Part shown: one piece after another, positions 16,160-43,086 of the stretch
Layout: every line of letters starts with the position of its first letter
How positions within the stretch are numbered: position 1 is the stretch's first letter
Assembly: GCA_963806185.1 (NCBI GenBank)
Contig: CAWDXE010000001.1
Location: 384,001 to 448,000, forward strand
Length of the DNA stretch: 64,000 nt
Source: an uncultured candidate division Zixibacteria bacterium
GTDB lineage: Bacteria > Zixibacteria > MSB-5A5 > GN15 > FEB-12
Reading direction: 5' to 3'
Notes under the pieces: model-generated
Databases searched by the model: none
The model's input: the letters and a program-made list of their open reading frames with translations, nothing else
Told to the model about the DNA's origin: nothing
Made by a program: the position numbers and the translations under genes

Positions 16160-18363
16160 CTAGCCCACCAGCTTCAGTTTGGCGTACTTCGCCATGATCT
16201 TCTTTACGCCCAGTCCGGTGAACATGATTTCAAGACGCAAGTTCTCGCCGTAACCGTCGATCGAGAGGATCTTTCCTCTCCCAAAAGTCGGGTGTGCCAC
16301 GATCCGCCCGATCCGGAAGCCTGTCTCTTCCTCGACGTCGTAATAGACGCCCGACTGCGCCGGAGCCGGCTGCGGCTTGTACCCGCCACCGTTGCGCGCC
16401 GATGAGGGTTGGCGCTCCACGCCCGAATAATCGTAATTGCGTCCGGTGCGATAGTCGCGCACCTGGAGCAGTTCCTGCGGAATTTCGCGTATGAACCGAG
16501 ACGGTATCGATTCCACCTGCCCGAACTGATGCCGGCTGGCGCGCGTGGACAAGACCAGCCGCTTCTCTGCGCGCGTTGCCCCTACATAGAAGAGCCGCCG
16601 CTCTTCCTCAAGCTCCTGCTTCTCGGTCACCGTTCTCTGCAATGGGAAGAGCCCCTCTTCGAGTCCCACCAAATACACCGTCTTATACTCCAGCCCCTTA
16701 GCCGCATGAATCGTCATCATCGTGACCTTGTCGTCGGTTTCTTTCGCCCGTTCGACGTCCGTGAACAGTGAGATTTCCGATAGGTATTCAGCGAGGTGGG
16801 CATCCTGATGCGCCCGGGCGAAATCGGCGGCGCCCTCGACAAAAGCTTCGACGTTTTCCACTTTGGTCTGGCCGACAATCGGGTCCTCTTCCAGTAGCGC
16901 CGGGAGCATCTTGATTTCGGCAATCAGGTTGGCAATCAGAAGATCGGCCGACTGCGTGTCGGCGCGCTGACGAAAATTTTCGATCAGTTCGACAAACGGC
17001 TCAATCCGCTTTGCCTTTCCTGCCAGTTCCGGATACTGCCCTGCCTGCTGTGCCACCGTATAGCCTGAGATTCGCTCCCGCTTGGCGATCTCAAAAATAT
17101 CATCGATAGTCTTTTCGCCGAGTCCCCGCTTGGGGTAGTTGATCACTCGCCGAAAGAAATATCATCGCTCGGATTGATGAGCAGCTTCAGGTAGGCCATC
17201 AAATCCTTGATTTCCTTGCGCTGATAAAACAAGATGCCGCCCACGATCTGGTAGGCGATGCTCCGGCGGCGCAGCGCTTCTTCAAAAGCGCGCGACTGAG
17301 CGTTGGTACGATACAGAATCACCTGTTCGCTCAATCGATCCCCACCACCCACCGCGATACGGTCAACAATCCGAGCCGCTTCCTCGTCGGCATTGTCAGT
17401 CATCAACAGCTCGATCGGATCGCCGCCGTCGATATCCGTCCAGAGTGTCTTCCCTTTGCGCATCGCGTTATTGGCGATCACACTCGACGCCGCCTGAAGG
17501 ATGACTTTGGTCGAACGGTAATTCTGCTCCAGCTTGATAATCCGCGCGCTGGGAAAGTCCTTTTCGAAATCGAGAATATTACGGATATCCGCGCCGCGCC
17601 ACCCGTAAATCGACTGATCCTCGTCCCCTACGACGCAGATGTTGTGATGATCGTCGAGCAACGCCTTCAGCAGGAGGTACTGCGCATGGTTGGTGTCCTG
17701 ATACTCGTCGACCAGCAGATATTTGAATCGCTTGCGGTACCGTTCGCCGATCTGCGGTTCCATCGTGAGAAGCCGCACCGCGTTGTACAGCAGGTCGTTG
17801 AAATCCATCGCATTGCATTCGAGCAGTCGCCGCTGATACAGCGTGTAGAGCTGGGCCGTACGACTGTCGAAATACCCCGAGGCCTGCGCCGCGAATTGCT
17901 CCGGCGAAGTCATCTTGTCTTTCAACTGCGAGATTTTGCGAAGCTGCCCCTTGGCGGGGAATTGGCTGTCGGAAATATTCAGATCCTTGAGGCAGTTCTT
18001 CATCAAACGCTGGGAATCGTCATCGTCGAAAATCGTGAAATTGCTGGTATATCCAAGCGCTGCCGCCTCGCGACGCAGAAGCCGGGCACAGAACGAATGG
18101 AAGGTCGATACCTGCAAGTCGGCGATAGTTGTGCCGAGCAGTTGCCAGACCCGATCTTTCATTTCGCCGGCCGCTTTATTGGTGAAGGTAACCGCCAGCA
18201 TCTGATGCGGTTCGGCTTTGCGTTCGGTGAGGATATAGGCCAGCCGACGGGTGAGCACGCGGGTTTTCCCGGAGCCGGCGCCGGCAATAATGAGCAACGG
18301 ACCGTCGGTCTGACTGACCGCCTCGCGCTGCTCCGGATTGAGATCGTCAAGCAATCGGTTCAT
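16160..18363 (-). pseudogene. pcrA: ATP-dependent DNA helicase PcrA/UvrD split by a 1-nt frameshift (may be a sequencing error)
   Basis: AGAGSGKT, DEYQDTN, LEQNYRST in 17143-18363; TIHAAKGLE, EEERRLFYV and C-terminal HPTFG.G domain in 16160-17146. Inserting one base near 17152 restores NPSDDISFRRVINYPKRG. Confidence 0.88.
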
Positions 18364-18424
18364 GGTGAGGGGAATATAGGAGTGCAAATCGTCAGCGCAA
18401 TCGCGTTCGCACGTTACCGGCAAC

Positions 18425-28149: not shown

Positions 28150-28324
28150 ACCTGCTATACAAACGCGAAATCGCAAAAAAGGCAAGCCTGTAAAAGAACC
28201 TGACGACCGGGGTCATGGTTGTGTATCTTACAGATCGACTTAGTGTGAATTCGAACCTTTTTTCGGGCAGACTGTACACCGTGCCGGTGCCCGCAGATTG
28301 AGGCTGACGAGACAACCTGGAAAT

Positions 28325-31171
28325 ATGCAGAACGACCCGCCCGACAACGAATCAACTCGTGCTATCTCAATTCTGGGACCGGGAACTATGATTTCCCGGT
28401 ACAAAATCATCAGTCGCCTGGGCTCCGGCGGCATGGGTGAGGTTTTCGTCGCCGAAGACACCACCCTGCGCCGGCGGGTCGCTCTCAAGTTCCTCGCCCC
28501 CACCCTTTCATCCGACCCGATTCTGCGCCAGCGCTTCCTTCGCGAAGCACAATCGGCCGCCGCCCTCAATCATCCGAATATCATTACCATTTTCGAGGTA
28601 GCCGAACACGGCGAACGAGTCTTTATCGCCATGGAATATGTCGAGGGCCGGACCCTGCGTGAAATCATCGATCTCGGCCAGATTACACCGCAGGATGCCA
28701 TCGCGCTTGCCGTGCAGATCTGTGACGGCCTGCAGGCGGCCCACAAGGCCGGGTACGTCCATCGCGACATCAAACCGCTCAATATTATAGTCGACCCGTC
28801 CAACCGGGTGCGCATTCTTGACTTTGGTCTCGCCAAAGCGGTTGGCGATGTCCAGCTCACCCAGGCCGGCAGTGCCTTGGGGACGGTCCAGTACATGTCA
28901 CCGGAACAGGGACAGGGAGCGGAACTGGATCATCGAAGCGACATCTTTGCCGTTGGCATCGTGCTCTACGAAATGCTTTCGCGCAAGCTACCGTTCCAGA
29001 AGAACAATATGGCCGCGACCATTTATGCCATCATTACCGAGCCCCACCCCCCCTTGCCGCCGCACGTGATTGCCCGCTTTCCGAATATTCAGACGATTCT
29101 CGATCGTGCTCTCGCTAAGCCGGTCGACCAACGCTATCAGTCAATCTCCGACATGGGCGCCGAGCTGCGTCAATTACTGGGCGGCGAGCATACGCAAACG
29201 ACTATGGCCGGACTTGCCGTTCAGACCATGGTCCCTCCGACGCCGCCGAAGCCCAAATCACTCGCCGTGCTTCACCTGAGGAACATGGGCTCGCCTGATG
29301 ACGACTTCTTAAGTTACGGTATCACGGAAGATCTCATCGTCGATCTCACGCGCGTCGGCACCATTCGCGTTGCTCCTATGCGGTCGATCATGCGCTTCAA
29401 GGACAGCGACGCCGACGTGAATGAGATTGCGACCAAGCTCAATGTCGCCTACGTGCTCGACGGATCTATCCACAAGTCGGCCGGCGGCCTCCGCATATCG
29501 GCGGAACTGATCAATGTCGAGGACGGCGCCAACCTCTGGGCCGAACGATGGCAGGAGCCACTCGAGAACCTGCCCCGCATCAAACGCCTTCTCCTCTCCG
29601 CCGTCACCCAGGCGCTCGATATCGGACAGACTATTATCCGGGTCGCTGAAGTTGGAAAAGCCGTGGCGGAAGATGCGGGCGCATACGAACTCTATTTGCG
29701 CGGCAAGTATGCCTTCGACAAGAAGAAAGACAAAGCCGACGTCGAGTCGGCTCTTTCACTCTATCGAAAAGCTCTGGCTATGGAACCCTCCCTGCTGGCT
29801 GCACGGGTCGGGATCGCCGAAATCCTGCTTTACCAGGGACTTTTCGCAGATGCGCGCGTCGAAATTGATCTCGGATTGACGGAGGCCGAAGCAAAGAACC
29901 TGCATTCCGAACAGGCTCATCTGCTTCGTCTGATGGCTAAGTTTCATGTGCAGCATGCCCAGTGGGACGCGGCGCGCGCGTCAGCCGATCATGCTCTCAC
30001 ATTATCTCGGAAACTCGGCGACCTCTCCGGCGAGGCCGAGTCGCTGGGCATCCTGATTTCTATATTCCAGCAACAAGCCAGGTTCGACGACACTTTGCCG
30101 CTATTCGATCGCGTTCTCGAAATCAGCCGCAAGCTCGACGACCGCGACAAAGCGGCCGAGGCTCTGAAAAATATGGGTGTGGCATATTCGCGTAAAGGAG
30201 ACTACGGACGCGCGCTTGATTTGTACGAGGAAGCGCTGGAACTCGCTCGCCAGGTGGAAAATCTCTCGCTCCAGGCAGCCTGCTTGTCCAATATCGGAAA
30301 TGTCTCCTACTTCAAGGGTGACCTCGATAACGCTCTGCGCAACTACGGCGAAGCGCTCGCCATCAACAACCGCCTCGGCGATCAAGGCGGCACCGCCCGC
30401 CAAAGTCTCAACATGGGGCTGGTCCATCTCCAGCGCGGGCAGAATCGCGAAGGATTAGAGTTGCTGAATACCGCCGCAACTTTCTTCGAGGCCCTTGGCG
30501 ACAAAGTAAATTTCTCCATGACTCTCTCCAATATCAGCCATCTCAGTCTGACGCTTGGAGAAATCGACAAGTCACGCAACGCCGCCGACCGGGCATTGGC
30601 TATAGCCGAGGAGAACAACCATCCGCTGTCCCTATCGACGGCTCATCACCGACTCGGCGCCATCAGCCTTCACGTGATGGATTACGATAACGCCTCTCTG
30701 CACCTGCATCGAGCCATGGAGATTGCCGAAGGCGCGAAGATGAGCCGTAACGTCGCTACTCTTCAGGTCAACCTGGCCGAACTGCATTACCATCGCCGGC
30801 AATTCGACTTCTCCCGCAAACATGCCGAGCGGGCCCAGACGATTTCGCGCGAGATCGGCGACAAAGTGACGTTGATTCTGGCTGAAGCCTACCTCGCCAC
30901 GGCGGCGGCTGCGGAAGGACTCTTCCACGCCGGCACCAAACAGCTGCGACAGGTCTTGGGAAAGGCCAAGGAGATTGGCGACGCCAACGTCGCACGCCAA
31001 ATCGAAATTCTGCTTGGGGAAGTGCTCTACACGCGCGGTCGTGGAGCCGATCAGAACGAAGGGAAAGCAATCCTGCAGCACGCGCTGATTCAGGCGACAT
31101 CCGATGAGATATCGCCCGAAATCAGTCGCATCAGTCGTGTCCTGGACGCCCCCCCCGATCAACCGGCGTAG
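28325..31171 (+). CDS. Hanks-type Ser/Thr protein kinase with TolB-N-like domain and TPR repeats
   Basis: LGSGGMGEV, VALK, HRDIKPLN, DFGLAK, GTVQYMSPEQ; SLAVL...GITEDLI domain; many TPRs; no TM segment. Confidence 0.92.
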   Translation: MQNDPPDNESTRAISILGPGTMISRYKIISRLGSGGMGEVFVAEDTTLRRRVALKFLAPTLSSDPILRQRFLREAQSAAALNHPNIITIFEVAEHGERVFIAMEYVEGRTLREIIDLGQITPQDAIALAVQICDGLQAAHKAGYVHRDIKPLNIIVDPSNRVRILDFGLAKAVGDVQLTQAGSALGTVQYMSPEQGQGAELDHRSDIFAVGIVLYEMLSRKLPFQKNNMAATIYAIITEPHPPLPPHVIARFPNIQTILDRALAKPVDQRYQSISDMGAELRQLLGGEHTQTTMAGLAVQTMVPPTPPKPKSLAVLHLRNMGSPDDDFLSYGITEDLIVDLTRVGTIRVAPMRSIMRFKDSDADVNEIATKLNVAYVLDGSIHKSAGGLRISAELINVEDGANLWAERWQEPLENLPRIKRLLLSAVTQALDIGQTIIRVAEVGKAVAEDAGAYELYLRGKYAFDKKKDKADVESALSLYRKALAMEPSLLAARVGIAEILLYQGLFADARVEIDLGLTEAEAKNLHSEQAHLLRLMAKFHVQHAQWDAARASADHALTLSRKLGDLSGEAESLGILISIFQQQARFDDTLPLFDRVLEISRKLDDRDKAAEALKNMGVAYSRKGDYGRALDLYEEALELARQVENLSLQAACLSNIGNVSYFKGDLDNALRNYGEALAINNRLGDQGGTARQSLNMGLVHLQRGQNREGLELLNTAATFFEALGDKVNFSMTLSNISHLSLTLGEIDKSRNAADRALAIAEENNHPLSLSTAHHRLGAISLHVMDYDNASLHLHRAMEIAEGAKMSRNVATLQVNLAELHYHRRQFDFSRKHAERAQTISREIGDKVTLILAEAYLATAAAAEGLFHAGTKQLRQVLGKAKEIGDANVARQIEILLGEVLYTRGRGADQNEGKAILQHALIQATSDEISPEISRISRVLDAPPDQPA

Positions 31172-31195: not shown

Positions 31196-32968
31196 TCACG
31201 GAATCAGTTTGACCGTGTCCGCCAATTCTACTTCGTAAAACTTGCCGGTTTTGGCCGCCGACAGGCTATCGCTCTGTAACGGCCAGTCGACTTGACGTGC
31301 CGCGCCGCCGAGCGGATCGCCGGAGAAACCGACAATCTGCCCATATGCTGTCGGAACAAAGAGCGCCGACATCTGGGGCCGCTGGATATACGTCACGGCC
31401 CCATTCCCATTTTGCGGGTGAGCCAGAGCTTCCAACACATAGGTGTGGGTACCCGGCGTTACGGTGAAAATCCGTTCCGATGACAAGTCAAAATAGTGCT
31501 GGCGACCGGGCGAGTCCATGTCGCCGGGACCGGATTGACGCGAGTACGGCCCGAGCACGCCGGCACTGGGCGATTCGGAAATCTGGATGTATGCCTGTGC
31601 CCGCTGACTCGTGCCATAGGCTTCAAGTGTCGCCAATCCTCGCACAATGACAAACCCCGCCGCCGGCACGGTAATAGTGACCGACGAGACCTGTTGCACC
31701 GTCGCCGTGTGCTGCGTCAGCAAAATCGCATCGGACGCCCATGTCGATGCCACCCCTGGTTCGTCGAGTATTTCCGGCGATCCGATCGCGTTCTCGGGCA
31801 GGTTTACCGACGAGTCGGCAGGCGCACCGGCGACCTCTAAACTTCCCTTCGGTTCGTTGGTGCCGATCCCCACTCCGCCCCGTGCTCGAATTATGAACTG
31901 GTCGTCACCCGTCGATGCAAAATCCTCGTCGAGCTGATCTGCCCAGACGAATGTTCCGTTGTGATTTGCCTTGGCGCGATGGCCGGCCGCATACGAGTGT
32001 TCACCGTCGGCATTGTTCTCCTGCCCGCCCGGCACCGCTCCATAATCTCCGGCGGCCTGATTGTCCAACCCCCCGCTCACCACGGCCCACGCTCCATCAA
32101 CCGTGTTATGCTCACCGCCGCCGATGGCACTCCCGCGGCCGTTGGCCGTATTATTCAGACCTCCGGTAACCGTGGACAACGGGCCATTGGTCACGTTGCC
32201 CGATCCACCGCCGATCGTCGACGAATCCCCGTTGGCGGTGTTCGCAAAACCAAGTACGGTCGTTTCAAGTCCATCGCTGCTGTTCTCGCCCATGGTGATC
32301 TGACCCTGGCTGACAATGTCGCCGTTCGGTTTGACGATGAGCGTGGTGTCCTGTTCATCAAGGCCGAAAAACACGATCGATCCATCCTGAATCTGAATCT
32401 TTTTCTGAAGCGCATTGGGCGACGATACCTTGGAGTCAACCGGTTCATAAAAGTCGAGCGATCCGCCGCCCGATGACCCCCTGCCAAAACCTATCTGCAC
32501 CGACGGTCCCGCGATGGCGGGCCGATGGAGCCCCGAACCCTCAGGCACGATCGTCAGCAGTCCTTCCATCTGGCCGCCGGTCGTGCCGTCGACTGTCGAC
32601 ACGCGCTGCGAGTACGCCACCGACGTCACCTGGGTCCGCGGTATGATCGATTCTCCATTGACACTAATCTCCAGCCATCGTTCCGGTGAGGCAAACACTG
32701 AGTCTGTCAGCGGTACCACACTTCCCAGGACGACGGCAAAGAGCCCGCCGGCAACCTGCACCGACGGATGCGTCTCGCTCCAGAGCGCCGTACCCTGGTC
32801 GGGAGAATTGAAGATTGAGAATGTCAGTGAATACGTGCTGTCAGCAACCACTTCCGTGCCGGCCTGCAGTTTCCCCTGATAGTTGATTACGTGTGGTACG
32901 GCTGCATGGACTGAGCAGCCAAACGTCGCCGCCAAAATCAGTCCTGACGCCAATCGGTGAAGCTTCAT
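31196..32968 (-). CDS. Secreted adhesin/tail-fibre-like protein with YadA-head-like GG..N repeats
   Basis: Signal peptide, VP..INYQGKL N-domain, roughly 15-residue (S/A)x(I/V)xGGxxNxxxG repeats, GTFVWAD, GGVGIGTNEP. Confidence 0.78.
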   Translation of the reverse strand: MKLHRLASGLILAATFGCSVHAAVPHVINYQGKLQAGTEVVADSTYSLTFSIFNSPDQGTALWSETHPSVQVAGGLFAVVLGSVVPLTDSVFASPERWLEISVNGESIIPRTQVTSVAYSQRVSTVDGTTGGQMEGLLTIVPEGSGLHRPAIAGPSVQIGFGRGSSGGGSLDFYEPVDSKVSSPNALQKKIQIQDGSIVFFGLDEQDTTLIVKPNGDIVSQGQITMGENSSDGLETTVLGFANTANGDSSTIGGGSGNVTNGPLSTVTGGLNNTANGRGSAIGGGEHNTVDGAWAVVSGGLDNQAAGDYGAVPGGQENNADGEHSYAAGHRAKANHNGTFVWADQLDEDFASTGDDQFIIRARGGVGIGTNEPKGSLEVAGAPADSSVNLPENAIGSPEILDEPGVASTWASDAILLTQHTATVQQVSSVTITVPAAGFVIVRGLATLEAYGTSQRAQAYIQISESPSAGVLGPYSRQSGPGDMDSPGRQHYFDLSSERIFTVTPGTHTYVLEALAHPQNGNGAVTYIQRPQMSALFVPTAYGQIVGFSGDPLGGAARQVDWPLQSDSLSAAKTGKFYEVELADTVKLIP

Positions 32969-33569
32969 AACGGTATGTTTCCCATCTCTGGCATAGTGTC
33001 ATCGCGAGTTTCGTGATCAGGGCATTCAAGGTACCCAGTGCGGAGATTCCTGCATTCTGTCGGCCACACCCCGACGCTTCCGAGAAGTCAAAGCCACCCC
33101 TCGTGACGGGTTGTATTCACCTGACCGATCGACTCAAATCATGGCGTCGCTCGATCACGCGCTAAATTCACGGTGTGCTTCTCTAAGAAAATATCGGCAA
33201 CGTCGATCTGTCAAGACTATTTTAGGAGGACGCACCGGTAACCGGGGTCGGGGCAGCACCCGGTCCCGGGAAGCGGTCCGGAGATGGTGAAAAAGGCGGT
33301 TAAGAATTATTTTTCGGGTGGGGGAGGCAACCAGGCCGTAAAGCGACAGTCCCCCTCCCCCCCAGTGTCGCGGTCGGCCGGCGCCTCCCAGTCACCCTTG
33401 CTGTGAGTGGGTCTCATGCGAGCAAGACCGCCCTCGAAGCGTGTGCCTTACCAATATCGGGAAGGCCACTGTCAGAATCCGGCAGTCTCAATTCAACTTT
33501 TTTTGATTACTGCCAAAATTCCCCCGCTTCGAGGCAATGCGCCAAGCCTGACCATCCAACCGGGGCAGT

Positions 33570-34184
33570 CTATACGATATCCACCTTGGAAATGCTCTTA
33601 AGGTCCTGAACCTCAATGGGTAACATGCTCTCGTCCTCCACCACCCATCCTTGGCTATACCGCAAACGAGGCCGACTAAACTCGATCTTTCTGCCGCTTC
33701 TGGTGGCAGTCTTGCTCTCCAGCCGCAACGACCACCGGTTAGCGATGGCAAGTTCGATCAAACTGGTGGTCAAGCGGTCAGAATAGTCGGGTCGACTGAC
33801 AGAGGTAGTCGTCACATCTTCGAGATTCGCGAGGACTTCTCCCACCAGCGCACAATCGGTACTCTGGATCTTCTCAATCAATCGAATGAAGTCCCGCCGG
33901 TATAACTCGTTTACATGCCGGCACATGAAACTGAGGGCACAAATGACCAACACGGACTCGGTGAGCGTGAGGTGATCCAATTTGAGATGCTGCGGCAACA
34001 GCAGTCGATACCCTTCCTGATCCCGATCGTAATAGACCGGGACAGTTGCCTCCGAAATGTCGGTGAGATAGCGGTAGGCCGTACGTGGGGCAATATTGCA
34101 GACGCTGCATATCTTTTCCAGACTAACCGGCTGAGAGCCGCTAAGCAGGTTTATCAGTCGTATGAGTCGCGAAAGTTTTGCCAT
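33570..34184 (-). CDS. Winged-HTH transcription regulator, WYL/PafB-like with degenerate WYL domain
   Basis: RLIRLINLL...PRTAYRYL..I...VPVY...GYRL N-terminus typical of YafY/PafBC; C-terminal PRLRYSQGWVV resembles an eroded WYL motif. Confidence 0.75.
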   Translation of the reverse strand: MAKLSRLIRLINLLSGSQPVSLEKICSVCNIAPRTAYRYLTDISEATVPVYYDRDQEGYRLLLPQHLKLDHLTLTESVLVICALSFMCRHVNELYRRDFIRLIEKIQSTDCALVGEVLANLEDVTTTSVSRPDYSDRLTTSLIELAIANRWSLRLESKTATRSGRKIEFSRPRLRYSQGWVVEDESMLPIEVQDLKSISKVDIV

Positions 34185-34236
34185 ATGTCAGTCCTTTTGT
34201 CGGGGCGGACGGGTTTGCCCGCCCCGCTAAATCCGT

Positions 34237-34476
34237 TTAGAAAGTCAACAATACCACCTCGACAACTCCGCCGATCACTACCCAGATCACGTCGGCAGAT
34301 GTTGCTTCAAGTCCGCCAATCGCTGCCGATTTTGGGGGAGGTGGCGTCTCGACAGGTGGCCCCCCCGAGGTTCCGTCAGCATACGCGGACTCAATGCCAA
34401 TCACCCCAGAAACGAGCAAGAAGCTCAGGATGAGAAGCGAAGTGAGCGCAGCCGTGACTGTTGCGCGACGATGCAT
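34237..34476 (-). CDS. Small secreted or membrane peptide (79 aa)
   Basis: AAGGAGG RBS; signal peptide with AYA-D cleavage site; Pro-rich linker; hydrophobic C-terminus. Confidence 0.75.
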   Translation of the reverse strand: MHRRATVTAALTSLLILSFLLVSGVIGIESAYADGTSGGPPVETPPPPKSAAIGGLEATSADVIWVVIGGVVEVVLLTF

Positions 34477-34522
34477 GATGCCTCCTTACAGGTTTCTCGT
34501 GAACCCGGTCTGGCAGATTATG

Positions 34523-34671
34523 TCAATCGTCGTGCCGTCTTTTCGACGCTAGAGCGGACACCGTATGCTGTTATTGTGCAATGCGTTAGATAAATTTCAC
34601 CGCTTTGCCTAAGGGGTGTCTTACCTGTGCGTGCGCTTGGTTACCACCAGTGTGACAGCAAGTCATTGATC
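34523..34671 (-). promoter_or_regulatory. Sigma54-type promoter (-12 variant TTGA) with IHF-like site
   Basis: Minus strand CGGCAC-GACGA-TTGA at 34523-34537; CAAGTCATTGATC at 34659-34671 is close to the IHF consensus YAANNNNTTGATW. Confidence 0.6.
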
Positions 34672-34740
34672 ACCTTATCTGACTCTGACCGGTTCAGCGG
34701 CAAGAATCCGGTAAACGGCAGACTTTGGGGAGTGCAAGAG

Positions 34741-37700
34741 CTAGAGCTCAATATGATACTTGAGCGCTTTTCTTCGAAAAGTCGACAGCGGCATGGCCAA
34801 CGATCGGGCGGCCCTTGACTGATTTCCATTCGCCTTCCGAAGTGCTTCCCGGATTTGGACCTCTTCCATGTTGGCAATCGCAGCCGAACCCCTGGGCGAC
34901 CTGGTGGATTTGATAATCTCGACCGGCAGAACGTTGGGTGTGATGGCCCGACCCGGCATGAGGATACACCAACTTTCGATTAATCGCTTCAGTTGTCGCA
35001 CATTGCCCGGCCAGGAGTAGATGGACAGTAAACCGATCGTTTCCGGAGTCAAAATCGGCGCCTGCCCACGGCTGAAAAGCTGAAGGAAATGATCTATGAG
35101 CAGCGGGATGTCACCAAGGCGCTCGCGCAGCGGGGGAATCTCCACGGTCACCGTATTGATTCGGTAATACAAATCCTGTCGGAATCGCCCACGTTCCATC
35201 AACTCGATCAGGTTCTTGTTAGTGGCGCAGACAAAACGGATATCTGTGTGCACAGGACGATTGCTTCCCACCTTCTCGTATTCCTGATATTCGACAACGC
35301 GCAGCAATTTCGCCTGGATCTCAAGCGGCATATCGCCGATTTCATCAAGAAAGAGCGTACCGGAATCAGCCGCCGCCAGTCGTCCCTCGCGCTCTACTAC
35401 GCCGGTGGCGACCCCCTTGGCAACGCCGAACAATTCACTCTCAACCATCGTCGGGGCCAGTCCCGCGCAATTCAATTTCACCATATTGCGCTTGCATCGC
35501 GGACTCAGGGAGTGGATGCGCTCGGCGATAATCTCCTTGCCCGTGCCGCTTTCACCCAGCAAGAGTACCGGCGCAGTCGTTTGGGCGATGCGATCGAGCT
35601 GCTCGAAGATTTCCGCGGTTTTCGGATCGCGGCTGATGAATTGGCCTGATTCGCCCAGATGTGCTAATCGTTTTTCAAGCTGGTCCGACTTGGTCAGCAG
35701 TATTCGGTATGACTGGGCATTGCTCAGAGCGACGGCCACCAGGTTTGCGATGGCCTGGATGTACTGGAGGTCGCTCGGTTCAAATAGTGAAGGAATGGTA
35801 TGGTGATCAAGATACAGCACGCCGAGCACCTGCCCTTCCACGGTCAGAGGCACGGCCGCTACGGAAAGAATATTATGAGCAATCACACTCTTGAGGGAAC
35901 GAGTGCGATTATCCTGGATCGCATTTTCCACGAGAATCGGCAGGGAATCACTGGCGGCGGTTCGCGGAATGGATCGGCTGAAATCGAGAATGTCGGCCAT
36001 GCTCTGATCATCGTCGCAGTTATACGACACGGCCGGCCGGAGTCCGGCGGCATTGCCCGTATTGAGTAAGATGACTCCCCGTTCAGCACCGGTTTGCTCC
36101 ACGGCATAGCGTACCAGTTGATACATCATTTTGGGATAGTCGTGTACGTCCTTGAGAATCGAAGAGATGCCATGGAACGAATCAATGAGGTGCGTCTGTT
36201 CATCTGCAGCCAGGGCGAGTTTGGCCAGGCTGGCTTCGATCTTCTCCAGCATAAGGGCGTTTTGCAGCTGTTTCGCGATCTGGCGCGCCTGCAAAAGGTA
36301 CTTTTTCGCGGATCTGGACCGCGATCCCTCAATATAGAAAGCACTCACTTCAATGGCGATCAACATCGCCCGGAACCGGTCCCCGGCCTGATTCAACTCG
36401 ACAAACGCCGATTTCCACCCTTTGATTTCGTCGCCCCGTTGGCCAATGTCTGACGGATACAGTAGAGTCGATAGCACGCGAAAGACCGGAACGTCGTGAT
36501 CAGAAATGACCGCGCGCAGTCGATCACGCCGGGCGCGCATGTTGTCATCTACGCTCTGCCCGCTGGCAACGATCTGAAATAGCCCGAGCGCGGCATAGAA
36601 AAAGCTCCCGCGTTCCAGCAGAACATCAATAATCGGATATACCGAGGCAGGATCGACGTCTCTTGCGTACACCAGGTCGCCGATTTTCTGTATCATATCC
36701 AACTCGGCGAGCGAGGTGATATCCTCGTACTGAGCGAATAGCTTACGGGCTGATTCAAGGGCCGATGAGAGTCTGGGCATGTCCCCTCGAATCAGGGCAC
36801 ATTCGGCCAGCACGTGATATGCCTTCCCCTCCAGGCTCGTCGGAGGAATGCTGCGCGCGATTTCAAGGGCGTGACTGCACGCCTCTTCGGCCAGCTTCAC
36901 CTCTCCTCGCCATAGCGCACAAAAGGCAGATATTTGATGGTAGTGGAGCAACTGCCCTGGATTGGCATTATTTGCTATTTCCACGTAGAATCGGCGAAGC
37001 CAGTAGTCGGCCTTGTTGATGTCACCCAATCGGACATAGGCGAGTATCAGGACGAGGCAGTTGGGAGCCAAGAGCGATCCCTGCTCCAGCTCGCCGGCCA
37101 TATTTATCGCGTTCTTGGCTGCACGTGCCGCTCCCTTGTAATCGGAAAGTCCTGTTTTGACCAGCGCAAGGGTCGAAAGCGCCGGCACAAGGACCTCATT
37201 CTTCATCGGCTCGGACAGGGCAACAGCCTTACCTAGATGCGCTGCCGCATCCAAAAACCTCCCCTGTCGCCAGTGCAGCACGCCGGAGGTGTACTCGGCC
37301 ATCGCCTCCAGGTCAACAAACCCCGCCTGCTGACTTCGCTGCCTGACCTCCTCAACCATTTCTTCTGCGGAAGTCTGCTCGTTGCCAATCATTCTTATCC
37401 AGGCCAGCGTGCGCATGAACCGGAGTTCCGAATGGAGATCGGAGTTTCTTCGCGCCACGGCAATTCCAATCTCCGCAAGTTCCCGGGCTGGGACAATATG
37501 GTCCAGTTTGATTTTTGTTTTCAGGACAAGCTGCAGACTTGACAGGTGCGCCTCCACGCTGCGCTCATCGTTCAGGACGCTGTCCAGCAGCGACTCGGCT
37601 TGAATCAAACGGTTTAGATTGTATGCTTCCGACGCAAGGTCGATGATCGCAGCCGGGTTGGCTGAGACTGCCGAGTCGTTTCCTACAACCTCACGGTACC

Positions 37701-38838
37701 TGTACAGGAAGGCCGCCTCAGTCCATTTCTCGGCACCATAGAATTCGTCGGATGGCAACTTCTGGTGCGCCTGGGAGCGATCACCCTGAACGACGGCGCG
37801 GAGACGATCGTAAATGTCAAGCAGGACGTCGTCGGCCGGATTGATCAGGAAGTGCGCTCCTGCGCGGGAAACTGCACCATGAGACAGCAGCCCCCGGATA
37901 ATCCTCATGGTCGTCCGATAGTGCTTTGCGGCCGAAGCCGTCAGCGCATTCATCAGTGTTTCGGTGATACCGAGCAGACGGCATCGCCGCCGCAGGAAGT
38001 TGTCTATTTCCGGTACCTTTTGCGAACGCGGCCCTCGGACGGATCGAAAATTGGAGAGCACAAATTGCCCGAAAAGTCGGGCACTTAGATGTTCGTACGA
38101 CTGCTGATCCACAACCTCGTTTCGCCGCAGAGCGGCTAGAATGTCATTCGGTCGCTTAAGATAGTCCGGATCGGACAGCTCGTCGGCAAGTCGTGTCAGT
38201 TTTCGGCAGTGTTCTGATGACAGCGCGTGCCCCTCGCCCCGGAGATATAAGTGCAACGCTACACCGAGCGAATACGCGTCGGACTGCGGCAGGACGGTTT
38301 GGTTGGCCAATATCTCCGGAGCAATGTGTCCCGGAGTGCCGAAGATATCGGCCTCGGGTGAATGCCCCGAAGGCAACAGGAAGTCCAGGTCAATGAGCCG
38401 CAATTCTGGTCCGCCAGAAGTACTGCGATACATGAAGTTGGACGGTTTCAGGTCGCCATGGACGACACCGGAAAGATGGAGGAAATCCAGTGCTAACGCG
38501 ATCGGGCCAAGACAGGTCATAGGAGTAAATGGAGAGAAATCATCCCCTAACGCGTGCCACGTGTCGGCGGGAAGCAAGGGATATTCGATTGCCACCCGGT
38601 CACCCGACCGGTACATAGCCACGGCCCGGTTAATCAACGATGATCTCATTGACCGCTGAGAATCCCATGATCGTACCAGTATTCGGTCAATCCGCTGGGG
38701 ATCGATTCCTGAGTCGGTCGCGGCTATTTTTACAAGTGCGGCTCTTCCCGTCCGACGATTCTCCGCAAGCCAGGACTCGACGTGCGAATTCGACGAGACC
38801 AATCGCACTGGTGAATATTCAGCAAACTCTTCTATCAC
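34741..38838 (-). CDS. Sigma54-dependent activator with N-terminal Ser/Thr kinase-like, TPR and GAF domains and C-terminal Fis-type HTH
   Basis: HGDLKPSN and GTPGHIAPE; TPR helices; GAF (AERG.I, AVPL...VLGVLYLD); GESGTGKE, LFLDEIG, FRQDLYYRI, WPGNVRQL; ALRKANGNQSRAARSL. Confidence 0.9.
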   Translation of the reverse strand: MIEEFAEYSPVRLVSSNSHVESWLAENRRTGRAALVKIAATDSGIDPQRIDRILVRSWDSQRSMRSSLINRAVAMYRSGDRVAIEYPLLPADTWHALGDDFSPFTPMTCLGPIALALDFLHLSGVVHGDLKPSNFMYRSTSGGPELRLIDLDFLLPSGHSPEADIFGTPGHIAPEILANQTVLPQSDAYSLGVALHLYLRGEGHALSSEHCRKLTRLADELSDPDYLKRPNDILAALRRNEVVDQQSYEHLSARLFGQFVLSNFRSVRGPRSQKVPEIDNFLRRRCRLLGITETLMNALTASAAKHYRTTMRIIRGLLSHGAVSRAGAHFLINPADDVLLDIYDRLRAVVQGDRSQAHQKLPSDEFYGAEKWTEAAFLYRYREVVGNDSAVSANPAAIIDLASEAYNLNRLIQAESLLDSVLNDERSVEAHLSSLQLVLKTKIKLDHIVPARELAEIGIAVARRNSDLHSELRFMRTLAWIRMIGNEQTSAEEMVEEVRQRSQQAGFVDLEAMAEYTSGVLHWRQGRFLDAAAHLGKAVALSEPMKNEVLVPALSTLALVKTGLSDYKGAARAAKNAINMAGELEQGSLLAPNCLVLILAYVRLGDINKADYWLRRFYVEIANNANPGQLLHYHQISAFCALWRGEVKLAEEACSHALEIARSIPPTSLEGKAYHVLAECALIRGDMPRLSSALESARKLFAQYEDITSLAELDMIQKIGDLVYARDVDPASVYPIIDVLLERGSFFYAALGLFQIVASGQSVDDNMRARRDRLRAVISDHDVPVFRVLSTLLYPSDIGQRGDEIKGWKSAFVELNQAGDRFRAMLIAIEVSAFYIEGSRSRSAKKYLLQARQIAKQLQNALMLEKIEASLAKLALAADEQTHLIDSFHGISSILKDVHDYPKMMYQLVRYAVEQTGAERGVILLNTGNAAGLRPAVSYNCDDDQSMADILDFSRSIPRTAASDSLPILVENAIQDNRTRSLKSVIAHNILSVAAVPLTVEGQVLGVLYLDHHTIPSLFEPSDLQYIQAIANLVAVALSNAQSYRILLTKSDQLEKRLAHLGESGQFISRDPKTAEIFEQLDRIAQTTAPVLLLGESGTGKEIIAERIHSLSPRCKRNMVKLNCAGLAPTMVESELFGVAKGVATGVVEREGRLAAADSGTLFLDEIGDMPLEIQAKLLRVVEYQEYEKVGSNRPVHTDIRFVCATNKNLIELMERGRFRQDLYYRINTVTVEIPPLRERLGDIPLLIDHFLQLFSRGQAPILTPETIGLLSIYSWPGNVRQLKRLIESWCILMPGRAITPNVLPVEIIKSTRSPRGSAAIANMEEVQIREALRKANGNQSRAARSLAMPLSTFRRKALKYHIEL

Positions 38839-39170: not shown

Positions 39171-41726
39171 ATGAAGGCTTTCTGGCCGGCCCAGGTATCG
39201 AACCCAAGTCCAGTGTGCTTCCGACCCCGAAAACAGCACGGCGATATCTATCGTCCATGCCTCCGTGCCCTCCTGCTGGTTATTGTCTTTTACAGTTTCG
39301 CTTTCGCCAGTTCCGGAATCACCGCCTGGAATAACCTGACCACCAAACCAAACCTTGATCTCATCGAAATGCCGGATGCCCACTGGGTAGCCGCCTTTGA
39401 CGCGGATGGTGACGGCAATGACGAATGCTTCGGTTGGCAATCCGAGCTGTACTTTGTATTCTCCGGCGACTTACGGACGAACATGGCATCGTGCTGGATC
39501 CGGAACATCGAGGGCGTATCCGCAATCTTCGGGGCCGAAGACTCTCTCCGCGCGTTGACTCTGAGAACCCTGATCGGCGACACGTTCAGGTACTACCTTC
39601 TGACGTGCTCTCGATGGACGGATTCCTCGGCGTGTCTTGATGAGAACAAGCCGACGCTTGTTCGCTCCCCGGAACGCATCCAAGGGCACGTTCGTGGCGA
39701 TTTCACTCCGGCCCTCTCCTGTGATGTCAACGGCGACTCCGTGTCTGATCTGATCGGCTTGGTTAATAGTGGTAAGTACGCGCTCCAGCCTCGCGGCGTG
39801 CGCGTTATCGACGGCAAGGACTACTCGCCGCTTTGGGAACGCTGCTTCGGCCAGTGGCCAATGGATCCCCGGTTGCTTGATCTTGATCAGGATGGCACTC
39901 CCGAAATCGTGGTCGCCGGAAATTCGGTCTCCAATGGCAGCACGGCCAACGGCTTCCCTGACTCGATCTGCTATCTCTTTGCGTTCGACTTGCACGGTCG
40001 TGACTTCTGGCCCCCGATTCGGCTCGGCGGATCGCTGACATATGCACGTTTTGCACCAATGCCGAACCAGCCCAAGGTCGACCGCAAACTGGTAGTTGTC
40101 ACGCGGTCCTTTCAGGATGACCAACCTCAGGGCGCCATGATGATTAACGCCCGTTCCGGACAGATAATTGCCCGCCTTGATCACTCTCCAGGCTTCGGCT
40201 CGCTCATGATCCTGCCCAACACGGATACGAACGCACGAATCTGCGCCGCCACCGTCGACGGCTCCATACTGCTTCTCGACGATGAGCTCGGAATTCGCCG
40301 ACAGGTCACGTCGGCATCAGAAGAGCCGTTCATGCTCCGCGCCCCCATGGACATCGACAACGATTCAATCAGCGAAATCGTCGCGTCCAGGGGAAATGCC
40401 GTCTGGCTGTTCACCGCCACCCTTGATTCCGTTTTTGTTCATACTTTCGATGCTCCGGTCTCCGGTCTGTTTCCCATGCGATGCGTGAGTGGCTCCGGCT
40501 GCCGGTTCATCATTCAGGTGAAAGAGCATGCCTTTTCCGCCAGGGCCTCGCGAATCAGAAAGAATCTCGCCGAAATGGTGCCGCCGGTCGTCCAGGGTAG
40601 CGTCGCTTCCATCCTTTGTCTGAGCGTGATCTTCGTCTTTGTCCAGCGTCGACGCTATTTGTCCTTTCTCAACGTCGTCTTCAATGACAATTCACGGATC
40701 ATCATCGCTCTGGACAGCCAAACTCGAATTTTCCGGATCAACGAGGGCGCGCGCAAATTCTTTGGTCCCAAGGCCCAATCCCTCATGGGAAAACCACTGT
40801 CGGCCATCGACGACGATAATCGCTATGCAGAACTCATTGCCGCCATTCGGGACTTCTCGGGTGGAAGAGAATCGTCAGCTCAGTGCGAACTGCGCATGCT
40901 GCACCGCGGAAGCCCGCGAGAGATGCTTCTTCAGCTCACCAGACTCGGGCGGGGACGTCTGTTCACAGGCACCGATATTATTCTCACGATGCAGGACATC
41001 ACCAGAGTCACTCAGGAGAAACTGTATGAGAGCTGGGACGTCTTTTGGCGCGGACTGGCCCATGATTTGAAAAAGCCGCTCGCGCCCATGCGCCTGTTCC
41101 TCCAGGACCTGGGGCGGCGACTCAATGATAAGACCGTGGAGATCGATCACATCAACGCCCGCTACATCGAACCGGCGCTGCAACAGCTCGACTTGATGAC
41201 CCGCCTGATCAATCGTGTCCCCCGTGCAACTGATGCTGAGTCCGCGCCGCGATCCCGCATCGGCCTCGATGAAGTCCTTACGTACGTCGTGAGCATCAAA
41301 CGATCGACTCTCCCCGAGCACATCACCCTGAACCGATCCGGCTCGTTGGAACCTGCCTGGGTGAACGGAAATCGGGACGACCTCACGCGTGTCTTTATGG
41401 AACTCATCGACAACGCCGTCAAAGCGCTCGGCACAAATCACAAGGGCAGGATTACGCTTTCCTGTCGTCAGGACAACGGGGACGCCCGCGCCGTGCGCGT
41501 TGAAATTGAAGACGACGGTGGCGGGATAAGCACTCAGCTTCTCCCCCGCATCTTCGAGCCCGGCGTGACCACCGGCGGCTCCGATCACCAGGGACTGGGT
41601 CTCTTCACCGCCCGAAGAGTCGTCACACAGCATGGTGGCCACATCGAAGTTCGCAGCCAGGAAGGTGGCGGCACCGTATTTGCTGTCATATTGCCCGCGG
41701 ATGGAGCGGAGGTCCCTTGTGAATAA
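39171..41726 (+). CDS. Sensor histidine kinase with extracellular FG-GAP-like propeller, TM, PAS and HATPase domains
   Basis: DxDGDGxxE/D repeats; TM helix; AHDLKKPL H-box; ELIDNA, EDDGGG, IFEPGVTT, GLGL. Start uncertain. Confidence 0.88.
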   Translation: MKAFWPAQVSNPSPVCFRPRKQHGDIYRPCLRALLLVIVFYSFAFASSGITAWNNLTTKPNLDLIEMPDAHWVAAFDADGDGNDECFGWQSELYFVFSGDLRTNMASCWIRNIEGVSAIFGAEDSLRALTLRTLIGDTFRYYLLTCSRWTDSSACLDENKPTLVRSPERIQGHVRGDFTPALSCDVNGDSVSDLIGLVNSGKYALQPRGVRVIDGKDYSPLWERCFGQWPMDPRLLDLDQDGTPEIVVAGNSVSNGSTANGFPDSICYLFAFDLHGRDFWPPIRLGGSLTYARFAPMPNQPKVDRKLVVVTRSFQDDQPQGAMMINARSGQIIARLDHSPGFGSLMILPNTDTNARICAATVDGSILLLDDELGIRRQVTSASEEPFMLRAPMDIDNDSISEIVASRGNAVWLFTATLDSVFVHTFDAPVSGLFPMRCVSGSGCRFIIQVKEHAFSARASRIRKNLAEMVPPVVQGSVASILCLSVIFVFVQRRRYLSFLNVVFNDNSRIIIALDSQTRIFRINEGARKFFGPKAQSLMGKPLSAIDDDNRYAELIAAIRDFSGGRESSAQCELRMLHRGSPREMLLQLTRLGRGRLFTGTDIILTMQDITRVTQEKLYESWDVFWRGLAHDLKKPLAPMRLFLQDLGRRLNDKTVEIDHINARYIEPALQQLDLMTRLINRVPRATDAESAPRSRIGLDEVLTYVVSIKRSTLPEHITLNRSGSLEPAWVNGNRDDLTRVFMELIDNAVKALGTNHKGRITLSCRQDNGDARAVRVEIEDDGGGISTQLLPRIFEPGVTTGGSDHQGLGLFTARRVVTQHGGHIEVRSQEGGGTVFAVILPADGAEVPCE

Positions 41727-43086
41727 GCCCGTGATTTTGGCCATTGACGACGACTTGAACTTTCTGGCCGCCCTGCAGGTGGTGCTACAGGATCAATACG
41801 ACCTGATCCAGGCAACATCAGGTGAAATCGGCCTGCAATTACTCAAGAAGAACCGGGCAAACACTGTCCTGCTTGACGTCAACCTTCCGGGCTCAGACGG
41901 AATCGTCATACTTGGCTCAATTCGGGAGATGTTCCCCGGCCTTCCCGTTGTCATGGTAACCGCCGAAAAGCAACTGGCCGTGGCAGTTGATGCAATCAAG
42001 CGAGGCGCCTTCGATTATCTTGATAAGCCGGTCGATCGTGATCGCCTCCTGACCACCATTCGCAATGCACTGGCGGTCGAAGCCGGGGAGCGAGAACGCG
42101 CCGCCTTGATCGATATTGCCAAACGGCTGTATCCGATCATCGGAGACAGTCCTGCCATGCAGCACGTCCGCGAATTTGCAGCCAAGGTGGGCCCTTCGGA
42201 TCTCCCGGTCCTTATCACGGGCGAGACGGGTACCGGCAAAGACCTTGTAGCCAGACTGATACACTACTCCAGCCGGCGCGCAAGCTTGCCATTCATCAAA
42301 CTCAATATGGCCAGTGTTCCGGAGGACTTGCTCGAATCGGAACTGTTCGGCCATAGGCGGGGAGCCTTTACCGGCGCGGTCGCTGATCGAGAAGGTGTCT
42401 TCCGCGCGGCCGAAGGCGGCACACTTTTTCTCGACGAGATCGGACTTGCTTCCCGTCGCATGCAAGGCAAAATCCTCGAGGCGGTCGAGAACAGGGAATT
42501 TGCGCCGGTCGGCGCTAACCAGAAGATCAAAGTGAACATTCGCATCGTCACGGCCACCAATAAAGACCTCCGGGCCGAAATCCAGGCCGACCGCTTCCTT
42601 CTCGATTTGTACCACCGCATCGCCGCCCTCGCCATTGACATTCCGCCACTGCGAGAACGGCTGGAGGACATTATTCAGATCGCCGAACACTACCTCGCCC
42701 TGGGTTCCGCCGAATTGCAGGCCCCCCCACGGTCGTTCGCCCCGGAGACGAGACAGCTCCTCCTCGATCATTCGTGGCCGGGAAACGGCCGGGAATTGAA
42801 GGGAACGATTATGGCTGCCTTACTTTTCTCTGATGACCAGGTGATCGAGCCGGAGGATATCGCCATACATCTCCACCGCGCTCCAGGTAAGGCCTTGAAC
42901 GGCGACCACTCCCTGTATCACAACCTCCGCACTTGGGAGCGCGAGTTTATAAGCAGGGCACTCCTCGCGTGCGACTACGATATCCCTAAGACAGCCGCCT
43001 TGATTGGTGTCCACAGAGTCACGCTGTACAAGAAGCTGAGAACACTGAACCTCGAAATCCACAACTCCACCCAAGAGAAACTGTAA
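41719..43086 (+). CDS. NtrC-family sigma54 response regulator
   Basis: REC (IDDD, LLDVNLP, KP), GETGTGKD, canonical GAFTGA, HTH; GTG start overlapping the kinase stop, GGAGG RBS. Confidence 0.93.
   Translation: MNKPVILAIDDDLNFLAALQVVLQDQYDLIQATSGEIGLQLLKKNRANTVLLDVNLPGSDGIVILGSIREMFPGLPVVMVTAEKQLAVAVDAIKRGAFDYLDKPVDRDRLLTTIRNALAVEAGERERAALIDIAKRLYPIIGDSPAMQHVREFAAKVGPSDLPVLITGETGTGKDLVARLIHYSSRRASLPFIKLNMASVPEDLLESELFGHRRGAFTGAVADREGVFRAAEGGTLFLDEIGLASRRMQGKILEAVENREFAPVGANQKIKVNIRIVTATNKDLRAEIQADRFLLDLYHRIAALAIDIPPLRERLEDIIQIAEHYLALGSAELQAPPRSFAPETRQLLLDHSWPGNGRELKGTIMAALLFSDDQVIEPEDIAIHLHRAPGKALNGDHSLYHNLRTWEREFISRALLACDYDIPKTAALIGVHRVTLYKKLRTLNLEIHNSTQEKL

Follow-up and report, generated by a model that had tools for sequence, protein, structure and literature searches.

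The 64,000-nucleotide stretch of Zixibacteria DNA analysed here (the window; positions without another label are counted within it) carries on its minus strand a cassette of three genes, encoding a large sigma-54 activator, a small exported precursor and a short helix-turn-helix (HTH) regulator of the WYL type, which is real, conserved and apparently undescribed; no description of it was found in full-text searches of a literature collection without most subscription journals. The host is an uncultured sediment bacterium whose genome (G000, 82% complete) contains one full-length copy of the activator gene and one rpoN gene. We lean, with modest confidence, towards explaining the cassette as a circuit of peptide signal and receptor that works in the manner of the RRNPP systems without belonging to them and is built on a STAND-derived sigma-54 activator. 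The observations on which this explanation is based are the gene order, the promoter, the domain content, the intact kinase and ATPase motifs, the RNA contigs of the small open reading frame (ORF) and the joint divergence of the TPR region and the peptide.

A preliminary description of this DNA had placed an activator gene, a promoter, a ribosome-binding site, a 79-residue ORF, a hairpin and an HTH-WYL gene on the minus strand, and all were recovered where it had put them. Homologues were then sought with the N-terminal 1046 residues of the activator in 285 genomes of the phylum; the best matches listed, 120 loci from 116 genomes, form our sample, and 287 weaker matches lie outside it. Throughout the sampled genomes the succession of activator, promoter, signal-peptide ORF, hairpin and HTH-WYL gene is a conserved cassette. 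The small ORF behind activator homologues, whose conservation had been proposed as a check, was present in 111 of the 115 loci that could be evaluated, the other five of the 120 ending too early (our script called it in 109 of the 115 and picked the wrong frame in L202; inspection added L202, L138 and L177). The companion check on the regulator gave a short HTH-WYL gene within 2.6 kb in 101 of 106 loci. Among the 111 carriers the peptide gene is broken or shortened in four (L112, L133, L177 and L202); three of these (L112, L133 and L202) have lost the tail and retained the signal peptide and the N-terminal motif, which counts for a signalling role. No peptide gene was found in L104, L110, L159 and L156. 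L156 has, behind a second copy of the activator, a promoter and then an ORF with an HExxH motif where the peptide would stand; we take this ORF to be ImmA/IrrE-like. The outer neighbours of the cassette are not conserved across the loci sampled. Of the named homologues, two carry the label Zixibacteria and one Acidobacteriota, and when 1.84 billion representatives were searched with a profile, most of the proteins found were of the same type of 1350-1450 residues, devoid of names or context.

The activator (1365 residues; 34741..38838, minus strand) combines, according to Pfam, Pkinase (residues 27-202), TPR_MalT/TPR_12 (459-687), GAF (903-1040), Sigma54_activat (1068-1232) and the Fis-type HTH_8 (1322-1361). 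It was expected to be cytoplasmic, and indeed it has no membrane segment, the best 19-residue hydropathy being 1.76. The kinase residues K37, H127, D129, N134 and D150 are invariant in 83 of 83 sequences; in the same 83 the Walker A and B motifs and the arginine fingers are invariant or nearly so and the loop threonine is conserved. The GAF residues are invariant too. All NCBIfam scores of the protein fall far under their cut-offs (nifA, 310 vs 529). Its relatives are about 1350-1750 residues long, and the STAND domain AAA_16 was found in all three long relatives scanned (1620-1750 residues), in neither of two short ones and, by Pfam, not in the window's activator; to judge from these scans, the window's clade has lost the STAND ATPase that the longer relatives carry. 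In 14 of 18 long relatives a gene encoding only an AAA domain, with an altered Walker B motif, lies between the peptide and HTH-WYL genes. A structure model of the TPR-GAF region (predicted local distance difference test, pLDDT, 90) resembles peptide-binding solenoids of the LGN type with modest scores, and the TPR profile matches the peptide-binding TPRs of LGN, kinesin light chain, NprR (1e-16) and RapF (5e-15).

The sigma-54 contact loop reads GVATGV in the window's activator and is xVATGV-like across the family, with GVATGV, NVATGV, KTATGV and others as variants. A -24/-12 site was found at most 500 nucleotides downstream of xVATGV activators in 27 of 80 loci from other phyla, and downstream of GAFTGA activators, taken as controls from one other phylum, in 0 of 25. 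The same loop GVATGV is present in DVUA0100, for which sigma-54 targets were predicted without experiment, as far as the excerpted text of PMC4641369 goes.

Behind the activator stands a -24/-12 promoter, CGGCAC-N5-TTGA (34537-34523, minus strand), with a predicted transcription start at about 34511. The sigma-54-like promoter of the preliminary description is borne out in position and conservation, and differs in its -12 element, which is TTGA and not TTGC; the usual form is TTGA or TTGT among members of the short clade and TTGC among those of the long clade. In 86 of 109 sequences, compared with 1.69 in shuffles, the motif GGYA-N6-YTG lies 15-110 nucleotides ahead of the small ORF, typically about 200 nucleotides past the activator stop and 60 before that ORF, and this constancy supports the claimed wiring of the promoter to the small ORF. 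We considered whether the TTGA variant is the match to the GVATGV loop and rejected this, because TTGA or TTGT also precedes unrelated genes of the source genome and the long relatives pair xVATGV with TTGC. Further upstream, expectation maximisation (EM) found the motif atTTgCCa..TtgCC at -215 to -140 (near -190) in 81 sequences, with a log-likelihood of 268 vs 48 after shuffling. The window's copy (9.8 bits), tandem TTGCC-type repeats just past the activator stop (34690..34722, minus strand), is a likely upstream activator site, and we infer that the activator binds it; a weaker inverted copy lies near -105 (5.7 bits in the window). An IHF-like motif, tAA....TT, occupies about -60 to -30 (log-likelihood 221 vs 54 after shuffling). 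Its window copy (34579..34594, minus strand, 10.5 bits) had been noticed before; its position is conserved in relatives and its match to the IHF consensus used for comparison is partial. Identity of the TTGCC site with a recA motif was rejected, since recA promoters scored 7.7 vs 7.0 for shuffled sequences (23 sequences) and the box ahead of recA is another palindrome, and a regulon drawn from the TTGCC matrix was abandoned as too loose, with 513 genome matches above 13 bits.

The exported precursor (79 residues; 34237..34476, minus strand, ATG at 34476) is preceded by the ribosome-binding site AAGGAGG (34481..34487, minus strand), and similar sites occur in relatives. It consists of a signal peptide (residues 1-33), a mature start DGTSGGPPVE, a linker rich in proline and acidic residues and a hydrophobic tail free of basic residues. 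The signal peptide was recognised by pattern and not by SignalP: a basic start, a hydrophobic core and Ala or Val at -3 in 74 of 109. Ahead of the first Asp or Glu stands Ala in 74 and Gly in 16 of the 109 (together 90 at -1), and the residue following it is Gly in 75. This plan of signal peptide, cleavage before Asp/Glu-Gly, Gly/Pro-rich start, acidic linker and hydrophobic tail is kept at a mean column identity of 16%. The best-kept part is the first ten mature residues, with an identity of 0.74 vs 0.52-0.56 (39 non-independent close pairs), and these ten residues after signal-peptidase cleavage (34348..34377, minus strand) are the predicted signal. Neither Pfam nor NCBIfam (scanned with 108 members) nor the ESM Atlas yielded a family for the peptide.

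In three metatranscriptomes from three studies we found one contig each of a close relative, covering the small ORF only. Aligned end to end, the contigs extend over 34234-34499, 34235-34496 and 34294-34499, and the DNA run compared with them gave no record at the small ORF. A transcription start near the -12 element had been named as a check, and the contigs indeed end 12-15 nucleotides inside the predicted start at 34511. These are unstranded contigs from libraries in which DNA may be present, and they hint at a discrete transcript that begins near 34511 and reaches the hairpin. Of the differences in the three contigs, 11 of 18, 9 of 10 and 6 of 7 lie at third codon positions; most of the differences are silent, and the amino-acid changes affect residues 36-43 and, once, residue 62. 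No RNA contigs covered the activator or HTH-WYL genes, which we do not read as low expression; the RNA depth on other bins came from short matches to AAA domains of other organisms. Two of the contigs end at 34234-34235, by the GC hairpin without U-tract that lies between the peptide and HTH-WYL genes (34201..34226, minus strand; -23.3 kcal/mol, z -2.76). This hairpin, common and not universal in relatives, is likely an RNA 3' stabiliser or attenuator.

Co-variation of TPR region and peptide, another of the proposed checks, was measured in 16 disjoint close pairs, 11 unsaturated and 5 saturated by a cut-off chosen after looking. All five unsaturated pairs that differ at two or more of the ten residues had excess silent divergence in the TPR region (0.096-0.211), compared with none of the other six (-0.022-0.058; p 0.002). 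TPR divergence followed that of the ten residues with rho 0.77, and that of the tail with rho 0.42. The pattern of TPR blocks looks as it would after allele exchange.

Repeat-type precursors occur in another phylum, that of bacterium BMS3Bbin03, which NCBI leaves unclassified and which we take to be KSB1. In 5 of its 151 genomes, plus one metagenome contig, a long activator is accompanied by the same promoter and by a signal peptide; of 3 loci to which the repeat-type activator led in a scan of metagenomes, one is a true relative. There the precursors carry 3-8 exact copies of a nine-residue core, [SQ]GP[RV]DIPVG, with three-residue spacers and no tail: three in L324, eight in L328, eight in L325 (across a frameshift), at least five in L327 and six in L388, the sequence of L326 ending before the repeats. 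The repeats begin at the cleavage site in three precursors, and they run to the stop. The activators are of kinase-STAND-TPR-GAF type, and no short HTH-WYL gene was found in the one such genome examined. Their AAA domains group with those of Zixibacteria (SH-aLRT 94) in a quick tree of 49 xVATGV rows, which took in 3 of the 18 long-class rows.

The third gene (204 residues; 33570..34184, minus strand) encodes a short winged-HTH-WYL regulator that lacks WCX. Its earlier assignment as a WYL-like HTH protein stands on structure, the model matching DriD (Foldseek E 1e-8), PafBC, BrxR and CapW in winged HTH, helical bundle and Sm-like fold; Pfam gives the window's gene no WYL match. Among 84 short HTH-WYL proteins HTH_11 was found in 81 and WYL in 4; in the long-class L196 WYL is above the Pfam cut-off, and a comparison of the HTH-WYL profile with the sequences of solved structures gave nothing significant. 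The window's protein is a WCX-less paralogue, with a nearly identical HTH, of a 318-residue WYL protein on G000:C7 (hhalign 99.3%); HTH-WYL proteins without WCX are class B in the part of PMC6789036 consulted. The ligand stretch [RK]x[FY][RK]xxR is present in 0 of the 84 short copies; long-class copies keep RxFRL. This stretch corresponds to the basic motif with which WYL domains bind single-stranded DNA, which can also be read off the full-length paralogue of the genome.

Ahead of recA, TGAC-N7-GTCA was found in 14 of 22 loci; the DriD box is CGAC-N7-GTCG in the excerpted PMC10853764. A matrix built from 14 recA promoters picks out a DriD-type box ahead of the activator gene in 30 of 106 loci, usually between -140 and -160; shuffled sequences gave none. 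None was found before the window's activator, and the recA box is exact in 0 of 109 activator-peptide spacers. Such boxes lie past the HTH-WYL gene in 13 of 88 loci; that of the window, 86 nucleotides past the gene (33468..33486, 15.4 bits), could serve the cassette or the next gene. In part of the phylum the cassette is linked, through the boxes of this type, to a probable DNA-damage regulon. Elsewhere in the source genome, G000:C7:584255-586000 (L081, L082) holds a full-length WYL gene, a DriD-type box and then a second short HTH-WYL gene, probably a damage regulator with its own truncated paralogue. Near-identical ACTGACAG-N3-CTGTCAGT boxes precede recA and three paralogous lipoprotein-like genes (G000:C6:138437, 205943 and 226578; C3:47792; C5:126487). 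In one genus (L375, L376 and L385) only a few kb separate the cassette and recA.

If the circuit works as we suppose, the cytoplasmic activator would bind the TTGCC sites and, with IHF looping the DNA, use its variant xVATGV loop to activate the sigma-54 promoter that lies behind its own gene. The small protein would be exported and cleaved by signal peptidase, a protease would free a short peptide from linker and tail, and a transporter of the OPT family, of which the source genome has three loci in addition to one of POT, would import it. About the first ten mature residues would re-enter the cell and bind the TPR solenoid of the activator as a strain-specific signal; the result would be positive feedback and autoinduction. 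The co-transcribed short HTH-WYL protein would relay or damp the response via the DriD-type boxes of the full-length paralogue, with no sensing of single-stranded DNA, and in long relatives the AAA-only gene without a normal Walker B motif would add a second brake.

Several observations weigh against this circuit. The contact loop is degenerate, not GAFTGA, and the TPR profile that matches peptide receptors fits MalT, AfsR and PH0952 as well, none of which is a peptide receptor. Binding of the peptide by the TPR region is predicted, its basis being the indirect evidence of co-divergence. The signal peptide tracks TPR divergence as well (rho 0.71), so whole-gene exchange could have produced the co-divergence; two of the five divergent pairs share one genus, the five saturated pairs have no excess TPR divergence, and the saturation cut-off was set afterwards. 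No second cleavage site past the first ten residues is conserved. Three loci of one genus (L104, L110 and L159) keep activator and promoter, have lost the peptide ORF and have a shortened HTH-WYL gene, the activator of L159 being split too. The branch that joins repeat-type and Zixibacteria activators has support below 95, and, apart from Gly/Pro/Asp content, the repeat precursors have no clear sequence in common with the Zixibacteria peptides. The OppA-type domain SBP_bac_5 was not found in the 82% complete source genome and occurs in 8 of 107 family genomes and 69 of 285 in the phylum. Clustering of 573 neighbouring ORFs yielded no conserved output gene outside the operon. We doubt that the WYL domain of the cassette senses damage, as first suggested, since in the window's clade it has a degenerate ligand-binding stretch; the link to DNA damage is through the DriD-type box ahead of the activator gene, which the window lacks there.

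A serious though unlikely alternative is that the small protein is itself the output, an envelope O-glycoprotein that is minimal, abundant and anchored by its tail, the activator sensing a cytoplasmic ligand via its TPR or GAF region, as in the RpoN-driven PEP-CTERM systems. PEP-CTERM proteins are marked by a PEP motif, a membrane helix and a C-terminal basic cluster. The third-position set A, I, L, V, M or T is that of the Bacteroidota O-glycosylation motif, and D[ST][AILVMT] occurs in 77 of 108 linkers vs 20 when shuffled, as would befit a lasting exported glycoprotein, which is a further point against the signalling circuit; the window's own peptide has no such motif. Genome-wide, the motif is enriched 1.75-fold in exported-type ORFs (216), compared with 0.93-fold in those of cytoplasmic type (357), which suggests an O-glycosylation in the phylum like that of Bacteroidota, where the motif is D(S/T)X (PMC11969387, in excerpt). 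The conserved hydrophobic tail, the missing OppA, the RNA contigs on the small ORF alone and the invariant GAF residues also speak for an output protein. It leaves unexplained the exact multi-copy cores without tail, and TPR divergence follows the N-terminal residues better than the tail. What we could compare from PMC1569441 and PMC9850573 on PEP-CTERM and PrsK-PrsR is alike in the RpoN-dependent, exported, low-complexity and likely glycosylated protein with a C-terminal hydrophobic segment. The cassette peptide differs in that it has no PEP motif, basic cluster (Lys or Arg within the last eight residues in 16 of 109), folded domain or family match, in that there is one copy per genome and in that the activator is a one-component one.

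We regard as improbable an alarm system in which the STAND-derived TPR region would, as a pattern receptor, detect ligands that come from phage or damage, with the exported peptide warning neighbours via a different, unlinked receptor. The STAND ATPase of long relatives, the mosaic TPR blocks, as in immune receptors, the DriD-type boxes ahead of the activator gene (30 of 106 loci) and the WYL-family gene in the operon agree with it; however, the 573 clustered neighbouring ORFs include no recurring defence genes (16 representatives scanned, without PADLOC), the window's clade has lost the STAND domain, no box precedes the window's activator, and co-divergence with the peptide would not be expected. 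Very improbable, finally, is a degenerate loop unable to engage sigma-54, in which case a different one of the genome's roughly twenty activators would drive the promoter in trans and the giant protein would act as kinase or repressor: the loop varies widely (from GVATGV to NVATGV, KTATGV and others) and loss of its Phe inactivates model activators, but its Thr, the Walker motifs and the arginine fingers are conserved, the sites keep a fixed spacing from the activator's own stop, and promoters follow xVATGV activators in other phyla.

Compared with RRNPP systems (Rap-Phr, NprR-NprX, PlcR-PapR, AimR-AimP), the cassette likewise joins a small Sec-type propeptide to a cytoplasmic TPR protein that likely drives the propeptide gene, with a regulator gene behind, an order also seen in aimR-aimP-aimX. 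RRNPP peptides are re-imported by Opp. Of the five elements of the RRNPP signature, taken from the part of PMC10075063 consulted, the cassette shows four: a propeptide of 79 residues (range 10-100), a Sec/SPI signal peptide by pattern, TPRs in the receptor and adjacency of the two genes in 111 of 115 loci. It differs in a receptor of 1365 residues (250-500 in the signature) with kinase, GAF, sigma-54 AAA+ output and STAND ancestry, in a diderm host, in having no Opp, in an active part predicted at the mature N-terminus and in an acidic linker and hydrophobic tail; because of receptor length and Opp, it is not an RRNPP member.

Nor is it a canonical enhancer-binding protein, a STAND receptor or a PEP-CTERM system. 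With NifA, NorR and FhlA the activator shares the GAF-AAA+-Fis HTH core, -24/-12 promoter, upstream sites and IHF-like site, and it has AAA+ with Walker A/B and arginine finger, C-terminal HTH, a linked promoter and rpoN in the genome; unlike them it has no GAFTGA, carries 880 extra residues of kinase and TPR and targets a peptide gene behind its own stop. The variant loop GVATGV is that of DVUA0100 (PMC4641369, excerpt). Like MalT, AfsR, PH0952 and the NLR-like Avs, it has a MalT-type TPR sensor and, in long relatives, AAA_16, whereas the window's protein has no STAND domain, its output is sigma-54 and no defence context was seen. The regulator shares winged HTH, helical bundle and Sm-like fold with DriD, PafBC, BrxR and CapW, the class B layout without WCX (excerpted PMC6789036) and a recA box, TGAC-N7-GTCA, parallel to CGAC-N7-GTCG (excerpted PMC10853764); it differs in the loss of the RxFR stretch in the short clade and in expression from a sigma-54 promoter behind a peptide gene.

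Activators with the variant loop were also met in other settings. In Thermoanaerobaculia and kin (L204, L214, L215, L217, L235, L240, L262, L264, L276, L280 and others) a 500-residue GVATGV activator has behind it a canonical -24/-12 promoter and a 50-residue hydrophobic ORF ending like LLQLYLTF or LTRVLIQL, and then genes that we presume to be RsbW/RsbV partner-switching parts. In L234 (Desulfobacterales) a GVATGV activator and a sigma-54 promoter precede a tandem series of seven paralogous exported proteins that contain Cys and are about 120 residues long. Within the window, an FG-GAP-type histidine kinase and a sigma-54 response regulator (39171-43086, plus strand) are divergent from the activator; the kinase was rejected as a peptide sensor, being absent near any of the 120 other loci, and the pair is not found beside other cassettes. 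The window also holds a second kinase-TPR protein of 957 residues (28298-31171, plus strand), a 590-residue exported protein with Gly-rich repeats (31196-32968, minus strand), relatives of which lie beyond three other cassettes, and a UvrD/PcrA helicase in two ORFs with a 4-nucleotide overlap (16160-18423, minus strand), a frameshift or an assembly error.

Peptide signalling through cytoplasmic TPR proteins has been described for Gram-positive Firmicutes and their mobile elements, in the part of PMC10075063 consulted. As a tentative extension, which we think possible rather than probable, diderms may have a separate, non-RRNPP family of peptide receptors that arose from NLR-like STAND proteins: xVATGV kinase-(STAND)-TPR-GAF activators would each read their own N-terminal peptide, with swaps of TPR and peptide alleles as pherotypes, Opp-free import and a truncated-WYL feed into a DriD-type regulon, telling kin of DNA damage or density. 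Should the cassette function in the way we suppose, diderms would own a version of peptide signalling made from an NLR-like sensor and a sigma-54 motor, and a large share of a phylum that is widespread and uncultured would have it. It would offer many natural receptor/peptide pairs for specificity studies and a suggested substrate for bacterial OPT transporters, and a confirmed function of the cassette would settle sigma-54 activation by xVATGV loops.

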